IMG/VR virus record: IMGVR_UViG_2574180227_000018
Reading direction: 5' to 3' (one strand)
Source of the DNA: a virus
Lineage: Duplodnaviria > Heunggongvirae > Uroviricota > Caudoviricetes
Length of the DNA: 6,635 nucleotides
Part shown: positions 1 through 5,138 of the stretch, in pieces
Layout: every line of letters starts with the position of its first letter
Position numbering within the stretch: position 1 is the first letter of the stretch
The notes under the pieces: model-generated
Seen by the model: only the letters and a program-made list of their open reading frames with translations
The model's database searches: none
What the model was told of the DNA's origin: nothing
Program-made: the position numbers and the translations under genes

Positions 1-1053
1 TTAAACTTCGTTTAACGCTTCCTGTATTCTTCGACCAATCCATTTCATGACCGGTACAGGCATTGAATTTCCAATGGCCTTATAACGATGAGCTGGAGAT
101 GAATTTTTCCATGGAATATCTGTATATCCATCGGGAAAACCTTGTAGCCTCTCGCATTCGGTTGGCGTCAACCTACGAACCCTTGAATATGGCGCTCTTT
201 CAACTATGAGCCCACCAGACATAGTCATGTCCTGGTTAGTTGTTCCGTTATAGCCAGCTATTACTGTGCCTGTTCGTTTTGGCAATGCTTCAAGGCAATA
301 TCGGTGCAATTTTCCTTCAATGCCTTGATCAAGAAGGGATTCGGATTTTTTCTTCTTTCCGTAATAGTTTTTATCGCCCTGCGACACAGGCGGGAACTCA
401 AATAATACCTTTCCGGGATCGAGCCTTTTTCCAGCACTTGCCACAACAAACACTCTTCTGCGAGCCTGGGCGACTCCGAAATATTGGGCATCAAGTACTC
501 GCCAGGCGACGATACGCGATGGTCCAGACACAACACCAGCGTTTGCCCATCTTTTCCTTGCTGGCTGTAATGCGCAACCTGCTCCGGCCAGCGCACCAAG
601 AAAATGACCGAATGCATTGTCATGGCTACTTAAAACTCCTGTGACGTTTTCCCATACGATTATTGAGGGGGATTTATTGAGCGATGCCCGAACGGTATCT
701 ATCTGATTCGCCAGTTCAACAAAAGACAGTGTTAACTGCCCCCGTGGATCTGAAAGGCCTTTTCGTTTGCCTGACATACTGAATGCCTGACACGGAGTTC
801 CACCTACAAGAATATCTGGTGCTTCAATAAGCCCATCCCTGATACGAGGCGCAAGCAAAGCCATATCACCAAGATTTGGTATATGGGGCCAGCGATATGA
901 AAGAAGTGTTGACGGGAAGTCCTCTATTTCACTGAACCATCTGGCTTTCCAGCCAAGATTGCTCCAGGCTACTGTCGCAGCTTCAATACCACTGCATACT
1001 GAACCATAGGTTAGTGACTTATCAGACTGAAAGTAATGTTTCTTGTTCCCCAC
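1..1053 (-). CDS. DNA (cytosine-5)-methyltransferase, phage-type, complete (GTG start at 1053, stop codon at 1-3)
   Basis: 350-aa ORF carrying C5-MTase motifs in canonical order: catalytic PCQ (GGTPCQAFS), ENV (VWENVTG), QxRxR (QARRRVFVV), and C-terminal RRLTPTECERLQGFPDGYT and AIGNSMPVPV. Gly-rich N-terminal motif I-like stretch (VCSGIEAA). SD-like AAGGAAA lies 7 nt upstream of the GTG. Short target-recognition region between motifs VIII and IX. Confidence 0.9.
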   Translation of the reverse strand: MGNKKHYFQSDKSLTYGSVCSGIEAATVAWSNLGWKARWFSEIEDFPSTLLSYRWPHIPNLGDMALLAPRIRDGLIEAPDILVGGTPCQAFSMSGKRKGLSDPRGQLTLSFVELANQIDTVRASLNKSPSIIVWENVTGVLSSHDNAFGHFLGALAGAGCALQPARKRWANAGVVSGPSRIVAWRVLDAQYFGVAQARRRVFVVASAGKRLDPGKVLFEFPPVSQGDKNYYGKKKKSESLLDQGIEGKLHRYCLEALPKRTGTVIAGYNGTTNQDMTMSGGLIVERAPYSRVRRLTPTECERLQGFPDGYTDIPWKNSSPAHRYKAIGNSMPVPVMKWIGRRIQEALNEV

Positions 1054-1207: not shown

Positions 1208-1616
1208 GGCCGCATAACCTCCTGCTTTGTTGTTGATGCCTTTCTCATGCAATCGATCGACAAAAACGATCGATTCGGTTTGTTTAATTGATACAACAAA
1301 TAGATTGAAAAGTCATCAACAATGATTCAGGGCGGTGATTATTTACTTAAAGAAAACGAAGAGTTAGGTGGTGAAAACGATCATAAAATGATCATTTTAT
1401 TGACTTTTTATACAGTGAAGGTAGGATTGTGCGTATATGTAGTATGTTTCAAATCAATGGGATACTACATACATAAAGGGCGACCCAGATAGCGCGAACT
1501 ATTCTGGGCCGATTTAGACAATTTTGCATCAATGCTTTACTTCGAGCTCGTGGCGTATCCTATGATATTCCCCGGTCTCCTGTAAAGCAGAGATGCATAA
1601 AAAGGAGATCTTTATC
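1208..1616. promoter_or_regulatory. Divergent intergenic regulatory region containing four GATC (Dam) sites in two close pairs
   Basis: AT-rich 409-bp region between divergent com (minus) and the small + strand gene. GATC at 1255-1258 and 1268-1271 sit in repeated TCGATCGA and CGATCGAT contexts; GATC at 1379-1382 and 1390-1393 sit in the inverted repeat GATCATAAAATGATCA. TTGACT at 1400-1405 is a possible -35 for the + strand gene. Promoters not confidently placed. Confidence 0.3.
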
Positions 1617-1787
1617 ATGGATAAAGAGCCTGTTTACCCTGCCTGTAAGACTCCCTTACAGCTCATCTATCGCCGTTCTCGATCTCAAAATGGCAAGACA
1701 TACAAACCAAAAAATGCTTCCTGTTTCAGGATGCTGATATGCCCTGCCTGTTCTCCCCAGAGGGAAAATACACAAAACGTGCATTAA
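1617..1787 (+). CDS. Hypothetical small Cys-containing protein (56 aa from ATG 1617; ORF track gives 64 aa from 1593)
   Basis: AAAGGAG SD at 1601-1607, 9 nt before ATG 1617. Product MDKEPVYPACKTPLQLIYRRSRSQNGKTYKPKNASCFRMLICPACSP has a CPxC knuckle plus two more Cys and is basic. No family recognised. Confidence 0.45.
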   Translation: MDKEPVYPACKTPLQLIYRRSRSQNGKTYKPKNASCFRMLICPACSPQRENTQNVH

Positions 1788-2403: not shown

Positions 2404-2440
2404 TCCCGCCAGCCATATCATGACCGGCGGGATTTTTTTT
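2404..2440 (+). terminator. Intrinsic terminator-like hairpin, + strand orientation (7-bp GC stem, T8 tract)
   Basis: tcccgcc, a 15-nt loop, ggcggga, then tttttttt (2433-2440). On the minus strand the hairpin sits just after the esterase stop but has no following U-tract. Confidence 0.4.
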
Positions 2441-4478
2441 ATTCTGTTACCGCTTTTTTCACTTCCACCACAATGCTGTCAATCAGCACCGGGTAAGTTG
2501 CATTTTTGGTGATATCCGTTACGCGGAGTTTGTCCACCGGGAAAGTTCCTACTGGTGACTGCGTCAGGGTAAACGCGGCACCATCCTGACCATCAATAAC
2601 CGGAATAACCTGAAGGCTGTTATTTCCTGCAAAACGGAAGGCCAGCGTATGCCATTCATTATCAAATACACCAAAGGTTCCCAGTTTCTGGTTATTTGTT
2701 GCCACTTTTGCATTGTGGTGCATCACATTCAGGTCTTTTGCGTCTGTCTGGATGTAGAACGATGCCAGCAGATTATTCCCTGCATCCCCTGTCAGGGTGA
2801 CACCCTGCGGCAGAGAGGAAACCGGCCAGTAAAGCGCCATGACATACTGGTTTGCCACCAGGTCGCCAGGTACTTTAAAACGACAACTGATTAAACCACC
2901 ATTTTTCAGCAGTTCAGCACCAGTACCGGCATCATGATCCAGATACCAGGATGATTTACCTGTTTCCTTGGTCAGTTTCATTGCCTTACCACCTGTGCCT
3001 CCTGCATCACTGATAATTTCAGCTTTACCGCCAGCCGGCTCCCAGCCCTGGGCTTTCAGATTTCCTTCTGACTCACTGACACGGTAAGACAGCAGTGTTG
3101 TGGTTACTGCTTCAGTTTCTGAAGGTGACGGCACTGGTGCTTCAGTTTCAGAAGATGGAACATCGGCTTTTACTGTGGTTCGCCCTGCATGAGTCAGAAC
3201 AGCCGTGGCCAGACGGTCGGAAATAATCCCACGACGTGCCCATGAACTGAAATGGCTGGCCCGGCCCGCAGATGTCCAGGTGGCGGCACTGTTACGCCAC
3301 GTTGAGCCGTAATAACCAATGGATTCAATATCCGGGTCTTCTGTCGGATTGTTGGTGGGTACATTCGCGCCATTTTCATCTGTCATTAATGGGACGAAAT
3401 GAATGTTTTTATCTGTTTTATTTTTGTAGCCGTCATAGATTGCCTGGTATGCCTGTTCGTTTTTCTGTTTCCAGAAATACGTGGTATCGCCACAAATCCA
3501 CGGAACGCCAGCAGCACTGCCACCGGTACACTGTTCCGCCTGTTCAGCCAAGTCTGCGCGGAATTTTTCCACCATCGCCAGAAACAGCGCGGAATGCTCC
3601 GTCGGCTTCGCATCAATATCAAACTCGCCCTGCATCCACACCACAGCAAGCAGGCGGTTTTTCGGGTTCTTCGCCAGTGCCGCTTTTGTCCGGCTGATTA
3701 AGTCCTTATACAGCGGCTTATCCACACCCCAGCGGGCTGAGTCCTCTGAAGCACCCGTGCTGTCACTGTACGTGCCGTCAGCACCCGCCGTGAATGCAGA
3801 ACCACCACGGCAGCAGGGAACCAGCAGAATCCCCGCATCTGCCGGAATAAACGGCAGCAGTTTTTTGGCAATGTGAAGCCCCTGACCCACGGTGCCATAT
3901 TGCCCTTTAGCCACATCCGCTTTCGGGTGATTTTTTCCACTCATATCCTGCACATCATGCAGACAGTGGTCGGCCAGAATGATGTCGTTATACTGACAGG
4001 CTTTACCTCCCGGCGTGACTGTACTGCGACGGGCTAACTGCATAATACGCGGTTCGGGGTGGTCATATGTCTCCGGCAGCGGCAGACCTTCACCGTAGGC
4101 CATCCCGTTTGACTGACCAGCAAGAACCACCACGTAATACCAGGAAGGGGAGCTGGAAGCAGTTTCATTTCCTGACGGACGGGTATGTGTTTCAGCATTA
4201 TCCCAGTCTGACGGTTCAGCAGTACCGGCAACATCAGCACTTAACGGAATGACAGCACCAATACCCGCACCGGTAATTTCCACGCTCGGATCACCGGATA
4301 CTGGCCTTACCCACAGGCAATCCCGTGTATTAAAACTGATGAGACAGTCAGCAAATGTCATTCCTCCTTTTGTTTCGGCCGGAGGAAAGGGAGCCTCAAG
4401 AAATGCCGCTGTACCACCGGAAACTTTAACAGTAAAGTTTCCGGGCATTGATGATAGTTGAACCCATTTGGACGTCAT
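2439..4478 (-). CDS. SGNH/SASA-family carbohydrate esterase (sialate O-acetylesterase-like, prophage NanS-p-like architecture), 679 aa, three domains
   Basis: GQSN catalytic-serine motif in VVVLAGQSNGMAYGEG and a downstream WMQGEFD block, typical of sialate O-acetylesterase/SASA domains. About 110 aa of N-terminal domain, a Ser/Pro/Glu/Thr linker with tandem SETEA repeats, and about 250 aa of C-terminal Gly/Thr-rich, probably beta-rich domain. No signal peptide. ATG at 4478. Confidence 0.8.
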   Translation of the reverse strand: MTSKWVQLSSMPGNFTVKVSGGTAAFLEAPFPPAETKGGMTFADCLISFNTRDCLWVRPVSGDPSVEITGAGIGAVIPLSADVAGTAEPSDWDNAETHTRPSGNETASSSPSWYYVVVLAGQSNGMAYGEGLPLPETYDHPEPRIMQLARRSTVTPGGKACQYNDIILADHCLHDVQDMSGKNHPKADVAKGQYGTVGQGLHIAKKLLPFIPADAGILLVPCCRGGSAFTAGADGTYSDSTGASEDSARWGVDKPLYKDLISRTKAALAKNPKNRLLAVVWMQGEFDIDAKPTEHSALFLAMVEKFRADLAEQAEQCTGGSAAGVPWICGDTTYFWKQKNEQAYQAIYDGYKNKTDKNIHFVPLMTDENGANVPTNNPTEDPDIESIGYYGSTWRNSAATWTSAGRASHFSSWARRGIISDRLATAVLTHAGRTTVKADVPSSETEAPVPSPSETEAVTTTLLSYRVSESEGNLKAQGWEPAGGKAEIISDAGGTGGKAMKLTKETGKSSWYLDHDAGTGAELLKNGGLISCRFKVPGDLVANQYVMALYWPVSSLPQGVTLTGDAGNNLLASFYIQTDAKDLNVMHHNAKVATNNQKLGTFGVFDNEWHTLAFRFAGNNSLQVIPVIDGQDGAAFTLTQSPVGTFPVDKLRVTDITKNATYPVLIDSIVVEVKKAVTE

Positions 4479-4577: not shown

Positions 4578-5138
4578 TTATTTTTCCGAAACGCTCGCAG
4601 GATAATAACGATAAAGGGTTGAAAGGCCGATATCAAAAATAAGTGCCACCTGTCTTCGGCTGACACCCCCGGCCAGTAAACGCCCGACCTGCTCGTATTG
4701 TTCCTGCGTGAGACGACGGGGTCTGCCGCCGGTTCGTCCCCTTTCACGGGCAGCAGCAAGACCAGCCCGTGTCCGTTCGACAATCAATTCACGCTCCATT
4801 TCTGCCAGCGCACCCATTATGTGAAAAAAGAAGCGCCCCATGGGGGTTGACGTATCAATGTTGTCAGTAAGACTACGAAAATTTATCCCCTGTTGCTGTA
4901 ATTCATCTGTCAGCGCAACAAGGTGGCGCATACTGCGCCCCAGCCTGTCCAGTTTCCAGACCATCAGTGTGTCGCCGGGTTTTAGTTTCTTCAGTGCCCG
5001 CTTCAGTCCCGGCCGCTGCGTCGTTTTACCACTCATTTTGTCTTCAAAAATCTGCTCACATCCTGCACATTCCAGCGCATTTCTTTGTAAACCTGTGTTC
5101 TGGTCATTTGTTGATACGCGTATATAGCCAATCAGCAT
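4578..5138 (-). CDS. pin: Serine recombinase, DNA invertase of the Pin/Gin/Hin/Cin family, 186 aa
   Basis: N-terminus MLIGYIRVSTNDQNTGLQ carries the catalytic Ser motif. Resolvase-type catalytic domain (VWKLDRLGRS, MGALAEMERELI) and C-terminal HTH (GGVSRRQVALIFDIGLSTLYRY). SD AAGGAAGG 7 nt upstream of the ATG. Immediately adjacent to an inverted-repeat-bounded segment. Confidence 0.95.
   Translation of the reverse strand: MLIGYIRVSTNDQNTGLQRNALECAGCEQIFEDKMSGKTTQRPGLKRALKKLKPGDTLMVWKLDRLGRSMRHLVALTDELQQQGINFRSLTDNIDTSTPMGRFFFHIMGALAEMERELIVERTRAGLAAARERGRTGGRPRRLTQEQYEQVGRLLAGGVSRRQVALIFDIGLSTLYRYYPASVSEK

Follow-up and report, generated by a model that had tools for sequence, protein, structure and literature searches.

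The window analysed here is a 6,635-nucleotide stretch of DNA from a Caudoviricetes record (IMG/VR IMGVR_UViG_2574180227_000018) and corresponds to the right end of a Mu-like Escherichia coli prophage of the Sp18 type. It carries com, which encodes a homologue of the Com translational activator, followed by the gene for a C5 cytosine DNA methyltransferase, and four GATC sites lie as two close pairs within the 618-bp gap upstream of com. We found that the pair nearer to com (pair 1) is very likely a functional element of the kind that controls Mu mom, agn43 and gtr. More specifically, we assign a probability of roughly two in three to pair 1 being the Dam-sensitive arm of an operator for the host regulator OxyR, which would repress com and the methyltransferase gene and would have been inherited from the com-mom control region of Mu. 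The original prediction had suggested that the four sites could form a methylation-sensitive switch similar to that of Mu mom. Sequence comparison supports this for pair 1, given its match to Mu, agn43 and gtr, its conserved position and a conservation pattern shaped like the OxyR consensus, but not for all four sites as one switch.

The sites are at 1255-1258 and 1268-1271 (pair 1, 13 bp apart) and at 1379-1382 and 1390-1393 (the distal pair 2, 11 bp apart). Both the paired arrangement and the palindromic contexts reported earlier are present in the sequence (TCGATCGA at 1253-1260, CGATCGAT at 1267-1274 and GATCATAAAATGATCA at 1379-1394), and for both pairs the symmetries exceed those first quoted. 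Pair 1 is enclosed in a perfect inverted repeat with 9-bp arms, AATCGATCG-N7-CGATCGATT (1251-1275). Pair 2 (1379-1400) lies within or beside a perfect 18-bp palindrome, ATAAAATGATCATTTTAT (1383-1400), which occurs once in the prophage. Using a local dinucleotide Markov model, the number of GATC sites expected in 1253-1400 is 0.97, compared with the four observed; the one or two sites previously taken as the chance expectation were thus an overestimate. Over the whole window GATC is depleted (12 sites versus 23 expected from dinucleotide shuffles). When 12 sites are placed at random, the probability of four falling in 140 bp is 0.015 and that of two tight pairs in 140 bp is 0.0009. Across the whole 39-kb prophage of a relative, the sole GATC pair with 13-bp spacing is the one upstream of com. 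The tetranucleotide CTAG does not occur anywhere in the window.

We compared pair 1 to proven sites. Control by Dam and OxyR is classical for Mu mom (PMC3378877; PMC2909390) and for the agn43, gtr and opvAB switches (PMC13337833; PMC2909390; PMC7708049). Pair 1, AATCGATCGTTTTTGTCGATCGATT, aligns with GATC 2 and 3 of Mu mom, AATCGATCGGTAATACAGATCGATT, and both have 13-bp spacing. The same spacing is found in GATC II and III of agn43 of strain K-12 (ATCGATCGTTTATATCGATCGAT) and in the published gtr OxyR sites GATCGTTTATATCGATC and GATCGGTAACAACGATC (PMC7708049 Table 2). The GATC pairs of gtr, at -110/-97 and -46/-33, are each 13 bp apart with one OxyR half-site apiece, and their methylation abolishes OxyR binding (PMC2909390). 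From GATC to GATC, the 17-mer of pair 1 (GATCGTTTTTGTCGATC) is identical to the agn43/gtr OxyR site GATCGTTTATATCGATC at 15 of 17 positions, and the version found in Citrobacter and Salmonella relatives (L009-type, CGATCGTTTTTATCGATCGATAAGTTA) is identical to agn43 at 25 of 27. The agn43 (flu) palindrome, ATCGATCG-N7-CGATCGAT, has the same form as pair 1, with 20 of 23 bases identical. As in agn43 and gtr, at least two GATC sites 13 bp apart fall within one OxyR-type half-site, here ATCGTTTTTGTCGAT, with a GATC at each end.

The likeness to the Mu mom promoter (Pmom) extends to the surroundings. In both cases the element follows gin near the right end of a phage of the Mu type and is immediately upstream of com; both have the block AATCGATCG-N8-GATCGATT with 13-bp spacing and an ATAG-type half-site 31 bp upstream; and in both com overlaps the modification gene, whose start (GTG GGN AAN) is conserved. 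However, the OxyR ('MomR') site of Mu, at which Dam methylation lifts the repression, has three GATCs (18 and 13 bp apart, in CGATCG contexts) and the window has two. The 13-bp pair of the window is in a context identical to that of Mu, but the third GATC 18 bp upstream is absent (a TATC is found 22 bp upstream), whereas it is present in Salmonella-type relatives. The distance from the GATC sites to the com ATG is 74 nt in Mu and 47 nt in the window, 27 nt closer. The cargo is Mom in Mu and a C5 methyltransferase in the window, which also has three additional genes between gin and com.

With regard to agn43, OxyR represses and methylation excludes OxyR (PMC13337833), and we propose that the same may apply to the window. 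A third GATC 19 bp upstream and an N7-spaced partner half-site are found in agn43, whereas the window pair is without a third GATC. Phase variation has been demonstrated for agn43. The half-sites of gtr (P22, Salmonella) and opvAB are about 32 bp apart, compared with 31 bp in the window, and in all of these systems the modification genes are phage-borne or horizontally acquired (PMC2909390; PMC7708049 Table 2). This spacing of about 32 bp has been attributed to reduced OxyR (PMC2909390; PMC7708049). In gtr and opvAB two alternative GATC-bearing OxyR sites produce the ON and OFF states, whereas in the window the GATCs are in one half-site only and pair 2 does not qualify as another.

We scanned the sequences using the Toledano consensus ATAGnTnnnAnCTAT-N7-ATAGnTnnnAnCTAT, cited by PMC2909390 as the source for the half-site. 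The full-site scores were 14/20 for agn43, 13/20 for Mu and 14/20 for the best site of the window, which occupies 1323-1287, immediately upstream of pair 1. Of the eight window sites with a score of at least 12/20, four are in 1256-1323. In dinucleotide shuffles of the intergenic region, a maximum of at least 14 was reached with a probability of 0.03 and at least four sites scoring 12 or more with a probability of 0.025. The matching half-sites are on the minus strand. Half-site C (ATCGTTTTTGTCGAT, 1256-1270), the proposed Dam-sensitive arm, matches ATAGnTnnnAnCTAT at 7/10 positions and GATCs overlap both its ends. Half-site B (ATTTGTTGTATCAAT, 1287-1301), also 7/10, has no GATC and is 31 bp upstream of C (start to start). 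Half-site A (ATTGTTGATGACTTT, 1309-1323) combines with B at N7 spacing to give the 14/20 match that is the best in the window, and is not kept in the JE86-type variant. An alternative N7 partner of half-site C is ATCAATTAAACAAAC (1278-1292, minus strand); the full site that results, 1292-1256, scores 12/20, and its equivalent scores 13-15/20 in most relatives. The combination B-N16-C scores 14/20 in the window; at this offset, most of the other lineages that we examined reach 14-16/20, including Mu, which has the 31-bp half-site layout too. In most lineages the best OxyR sites end on the pair, starting from -85/-86 for N7 and from -94/-95 for N16 (31-bp half-site spacing). The pair-1 sites thus match the consensus as well as proven sites do, with 12/20 (N7) and 14/20 (N16) versus 13 and 14 for Mu and 14 for agn43.

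We infer OxyR binding, methylation sensitivity, the direction of the effect and the promoter position from these comparisons, and the proposed mechanism is as follows. When the GATCs are unmethylated (possibly also when hemimethylated), the host LysR-type regulator OxyR would bind half-site C (1270-1256), and the partner of C would be either half-site B (1301-1287), at a distance of 31 bp, or the sequence at 1292-1278 with N7 spacing. Bound OxyR would keep com, and with it the overlapping gene for the C5 DNA methyltransferase, from being transcribed. Dam methylation of the two adenines on each strand would keep OxyR off and turn transcription on. Translation of the methyltransferase would still require Com. 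The start region (GTG GGG AAC A...) is conserved whatever the cargo.

Conservation of pair 1 across com loci

From species-representative genomes and viral contigs we assembled a set of 160 loci that encode relatives of Com, and counted distinct 150-bp upstream sequences. A GATC pair with 13-bp spacing was present in 42 of the 53 distinct enterobacterial sequences, mostly at -64/-51 from the com ATG, against a background rate in these loci of 0.006 per 150 bp. No such pair was present in any of the 63 com loci from outside the enterobacteria (among them Acinetobacter, Haemophilus, Neisseria and Methylophaga). The original prediction had tied its reading to the conservation of the GATC sites in homologous prophages; we found this conservation for pair 1, whereas pair 2 is limited to close relatives. 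Pair 1 is kept with Mom, C5 methyltransferase and N6/N4 methyltransferase cargo alike.

The pair persists while the flanking sequence diverges. In six E. coli variants that have unrelated sequence further upstream, the block comprising pair 1 and half-site B is invariant and the neighbouring 20 nt are variable. We then considered the nine bases between the GATCs in 20 divergent pairs. The spacer bases specified by the OxyR consensus were found in most of them (G in 17/20, T in 19/20, A in 13/20 and C in 19/20), whereas the 'n' positions of the consensus vary (majority base in 11-15/20). The flanking GAT beside the pair is conserved, and the outer arms of the palindrome are often broken across relatives, with no compensatory changes. 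We take this pattern to be the signature of an OxyR recognition sequence, not of a hairpin, and it is the strongest evidence for OxyR. A hairpin in RNA or DNA, or a terminator, was rejected as the conserved feature at pair 1: the outer stem is broken without compensation in 6-8 of the 20 lineages, and there is no T-run on the com strand.

One sub-class, mostly from Salmonella, has a third GATC 18 bp upstream, which reproduces the 18/13 pattern of Mu and can be aligned by eye with the ATAG-containing site of Mu. There are also exceptions to the conservation. Four loci (L011, L156, L159 and L160, at about 1420-1460) have lost 31 bp that include the GATC cluster and have kept the -10 element TATCAT, apparently by deletion between repeated GATCGAT motifs. 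In L135 one GATC is changed to GAAC. In L012 (about 1400-1440) the canonical OxyR arm CTAT replaces the downstream GATC, giving ATCGTTTGTATCTAT, which matches the canonical half-site at 9/10.

Seven viral contigs (L184 at 5107-5129; L213 and L274; L232, L269, L276 and L288), which represent three unrelated contexts, none with com, also have the motif ATCGATCGGTTTCAACGATCGAT and a third GATC some 19 bp from it. In one of these contexts an open reading frame (ORF) starting MKVFIINL lies downstream. These contigs may carry further sites of the Dam/OxyR type on phage genes.

Promoter region and pair 2

The gap between pair 1 and the com ATG is 47 nt including the Shine-Dalgarno sequence, and is about the same in most relatives (hereafter the short class). 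The annotated late promoter of Mu, which includes a C-activator site and needs 67 bp, takes up the 74 nt that separate GATC 3 from the ATG of com. A Mu-type layout with a C site between pair 1 and com is impossible in the window because the gap is 47 nt, and we found no C site and promoter between the GATC cluster and com of the kind present in Mu. The leader from pair 1 to com (1208-1250, minus strand), a possible core-promoter region, varies among E. coli variants. Where relatives have their -10 element, the window has a poor TGAGAA (1247-1242), and the alternative CATCAA (1238-1233) is degraded compared with TATCAT and TATCAA in sister sequences. In the Salmonella-type locus L010 a strong terminator is directly followed by the operator, with a promoter-like TCGATA-16-TATCAT and an upstream TG. 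Its -35 element is inside the pair, so that in this locus the operator would overlap the promoter; in switches of the agn43/gtr type the operator overlaps the promoter or is just past the start, and bound OxyR represses. Other lineages have TATACT or TATAGT at the -10 position of L010.

A promoter scan called no minus-strand sigma-70-like site upstream of com near pair 1. The com promoter candidates in the window are ATGACT-17-TATCAA (1313-1288), TGAGAA or CATCAA downstream of the pair, and the distant TTTACA-18-TAGGAT (1586-1557), and none of them could be chosen. A start from the 1313-1288 candidate would place the operator at about +8 to +30, which we take to resemble the agn43 layout. A protein bound at pair 1 should repress under either promoter placement, over the pair or upstream of it. 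The regions upstream of lys, I, the tape-measure gene and com were read by eye for a shared late-activator box, and only short matches at chance level were found, such as CATGAGA. Two other repeats are present around the operator. An imperfect 23-nt inverted repeat (1221-1243/1309-1331) flanks it, with one arm reaching into the Shine-Dalgarno sequence, and a CAA repeat between the operator and the Shine-Dalgarno sequence (1226-1235) has three copies in the window and five in L092.

Pair 2 occurs only in loci with a Com at least 95% identical to that of the window. In E. coli prophages of the AST198 and JE86 types, pair 1 is retained together with its upstream block, but the sequence at the position of pair 2 is unrelated. 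The best OxyR half-site score at pair 2 is 6/10, and its spacing is 11 bp. In gtr and opvAB a second, competing GATC-bearing OxyR site is present; pair 2 does not provide one, as it is 108 bp away and absent from most relatives. By these comparisons pair 2 is outside the conserved operator, and it is most likely either a copy of such an operator that has decayed or part of a divergent promoter. With respect to the former, the pair-2 region (1356-1415, minus strand) can be aligned to the pair-1 region of the Citrobacter relative L009 (1415-1453) as TGTATAAAAAGTCAAT-AAAATGATC-ATTTTAT-GATCG against TGTATTAAA--TAAATCAAAACGATCGTTTTTATCGATCG. This alignment implies two single-base deletions inside the pair, and its support is weak (p about 0.003, uncorrected for the 11 comparisons made).

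With respect to the latter, a putative promoter, TTGACT-16-TAGGAT (1400-1427, plus strand), faces away from com, and the centre of the pair-2 palindrome is about 42 bp upstream of its predicted start. In four relatives its hexamers are invariant while the spacer and downstream bases are variable. The site faces an ORF of 56 amino acids (1617-1787, plus strand) that has a good Shine-Dalgarno sequence, AAGGAG, and no Pfam family. Another GATC, at 1607, is located between the Shine-Dalgarno sequence and the ATG of this ORF. We also considered that pair 2 may be inside a real gene, the frameshifted hypothetical gene annotated by PGAP at 1322-1785 (plus strand). We rejected this candidate: its homologues are found only in the same E. 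coli prophages, they are variable in length, and they have no Pfam family.

Alternative explanations for the GATC pairs

All four GATCs could be part of one bipartite epigenetic switch similar to gtr, opvAB or pap, in which OxyR or Lrp would alternate between the distal pair 2 and the proximal pair 1 to give heritable ON and OFF states. Two tight pairs in 140 bp are improbable by chance (P = 0.0009), two pairs of GATCs are used by gtr itself (PMC2909390), four relatives share an invariant 39-bp block around pair 2, and (A/G)TTTT follows three of the four GATCs on the minus strand. We nevertheless consider such a switch very improbable, because pair 2 is absent from the AST198-type and JE86-type prophages and from all Salmonella and Citrobacter relatives that retain pair 1, its spacing is 11 bp and not 13 bp, and its half-site reaches 6/10 at best. 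The two pairs are 108-124 bp apart, compared with 51-64 bp in gtr and 102 bp in pap, and no papI-like or papB-like gene is present in the window or the prophage. The Lrp/Dam system of pap resembles the window in having two GATC-bearing regions roughly 100 bp apart upstream of the operon. However, these are single GATCs located 102 bp apart in Lrp sites, and both PapI and PapB are required, whereas the window has pairs and, for pair 1, an OxyR-like context. A pap-like Lrp switch was ruled out by the spacing and by the lack of partner genes. The pairs could also be targets of the sequestration protein SeqA, whose binding is generally compatible with both 11-bp and 13-bp spacings: two GATCs about one helical turn apart and left hemimethylated by replication would bind SeqA, and the region would be transiently sequestered, coupling expression of com and the methyltransferase gene to replication without OxyR. 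The switching bias of agn43 is altered in seqA mutants (PMC13337833), although later work on agn43 credits sequestration to OxyR and not to SeqA (PMC13337833). Since SeqA requires only GATC, the conserved G, T, A and C of the spacer, the GAT flank and the strict 13-bp spacing across lineages would be left unexplained, and we rate this the least probable of the alternatives.

The palindrome at pair 1 might also be the site of a phage regulator, either a late activator of the Mor/C family or another protein, with the GATCs mattering merely as part of its recognition sequence. A perfect inverted repeat with 9-bp arms next to the com start, the presence of a Mor-family activator in the prophage and the C-dependence of the Mu mom promoter (PMC3378877, PMC4461284) are consistent with this. 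However, the same sequence is found in agn43 and gtr, which have no Mu activator (PMC7708049), and Mu C binds downstream of GATC 3, off the pair, in the annotated promoter. The outer arms are often broken in relatives that retain the OxyR-specified positions, the pair is lacking in non-enterobacterial Mu-like phages with com, and no matching motif was seen by eye at the other late-promoter regions of the prophage. A phage regulator is therefore improbable. We give a marginally better, still small, chance to the absence of any present function, pair 1 being an inherited relic of the Mu-type operator, with a decayed promoter downstream of it, and pair 2 either a product of chance or a decayed duplicate. 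The window and the O157 sublineage have GGCATC where sister sequences have GATATC, which removes the best -10 candidates, and the promoter scan calls no sigma-70-like minus-strand site near pair 1. The weak alignment of the pair-2 region to a pair-1 region, with two 1-nt deletions, and the deletion of the GATCs in some lineages point in the same direction. Nevertheless, the block of pair 1 and half-site B is invariant across E. coli variants in which the adjoining 20 nt vary, com and the methyltransferase gene are intact, and the promoter of Mu itself is likewise a very poor match to sigma-70 and is activator-dependent (PMC3378877).

We favour the reading of pair 1 as the Dam-sensitive arm of an OxyR operator, and note several points that weigh against it. 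The OxyR consensus is degenerate and AT-rich, and the shuffle P values are only about 0.03. Half-site C matches the consensus at 7/10, with a G where the consensus has an A, and its N7 partner at 5/10. No com promoter could be pinned down in the lineage of the window, and pair 1 could overlap the -35 element or sit downstream of a start located farther upstream. The conservation counts include related sequences, with about 21 representatives that differ by >12 of 162 positions. There are two GATCs here and three in Mu and agn43, although the gtr half-sites hold two as well. Our literature search retrieved no study of an OxyR/Dam site, or of its conservation, in com loci of the Sp18 type, nor a methylome list that includes these GATCs.

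Gene context, interchangeable cargo and implications

The prophage of one complete relative has a length of about 39 kb and is inserted in ttdB, the disrupted ttdB gene adjoining the prophage end. The gene order on the minus strand of the window is gin, three moron genes, com and the C5 DNA methyltransferase gene. The Gin-like invertase is encoded at 4578-5138, the DUF6645/SASA-esterase protein at 2439-4478, the DUF1378 protein at 2107-2289 and the DUF826 protein at 1826-2071. The zinc-ribbon translational activator homologue com (1022-1207) has a hit to Pfam PF10122 (Zn_ribbon_Com, E = 5.8e-13) and can be aligned with Mu Com; its ATG is at 1207 and its Shine-Dalgarno sequence, AGGAGG, at 1223-1218. 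The C5 cytosine DNA methyltransferase gene (1-1053; PF00145, E = 1.6e-42), the proposed regulated cargo, overlaps the 3' end of com, and both genes are intact. Mu has none of the three genes of the gin-com interval, which encode a protein of 679 amino acids with SASA (sialate-O-acetylesterase-like) and DUF6645 domains, a DUF1378 protein and a DUF826 protein, and which are followed by a terminator-like hairpin (1808-1793). Long inverted repeats (5201-5283/6553-6635 and 5297-5356/6480-6539, 83% complementary) adjoin the invertase gene and bracket tail-fibre and tail-fibre-assembly ORFs, forming a G-segment-like invertible region that extends to the window edge. Among the prophage genes is one for an activator of the Mor family. 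A relic of gin between the DUF826 gene and com had been suggested by 11 nt that match the end of Mu gin, and this was dismissed when tblastn and blastn searches with both Gin proteins returned nothing significant. An Rfam search of 1100-2400 detected no RNA family at E ≤ 1.

The cargo gene differs among relatives. O157 relatives have the same regulatory region and com but Mom-family cargo (PF25680). The cargo genes of the window and of the O157 relatives are identical through the fourth codon (GTG GGG AAC A; 1039-1053, minus strand, in the window and about 4000-4014 in L002) and unrelated thereafter. All the cargo types seen (Mom, C5 methyltransferase and N6/N4 methyltransferase) begin with GTG GGN AAN, and on this comparison the start region that depends on Com appears to be retained within a portable cassette. 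The cassette would comprise the operator, com and the Com-dependent start, with at least three interchangeable kinds of cargo. A methyltransferase in the place of mom behind com has been described for FluMu hin1523, Pnme1 nma1821, Hia5 and B3 ORF48, and Sp18 has been noted as having Mom and its regulators (PMC3299994). These modules share with the window the order of com followed by a DNA methyltransferase gene, but theirs encode non-specific adenine methyltransferases (in Haemophilus, Neisseria and Pseudomonas), whereas that of the window is a C5 cytosine methyltransferase. The Haemophilus and Neisseria com loci that we sampled had no upstream GATC pair.

The Dam/OxyR mechanism itself is textbook knowledge. 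Pair 1 would be a new example of this known switch, differing in architecture by its two GATCs, an operator on or next to the core promoter and the lack of room for a C site. In short-class loci, which have no Mu-type C site between operator and core promoter, transcription may therefore extend beyond late lytic growth. It is possible but unlikely that the operator of such loci, on or beside the core promoter, switches the modification gene heritably ON and OFF in lysogens in the manner of agn43 and gtr. If it did, a second DNA modification, borne by the phage, would come under the control of host adenine methylation, and subpopulations would arise with differences in the modification and restriction resistance of both their chromosomes and the phages they release. 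A 13-bp GATC pair whose spacer has G, T, A and C at set positions is a search signature that could reveal more genes controlled by Dam and OxyR. If pair 1 works as proposed, Dam methylation read by OxyR would control a whole family of enterobacterial Mu-like prophages and not one phage. Such prophages are common in pathogens, including E. coli O157, O111, O26 and O103 and Salmonella, in which the switch would set the timing of an extra DNA modification.

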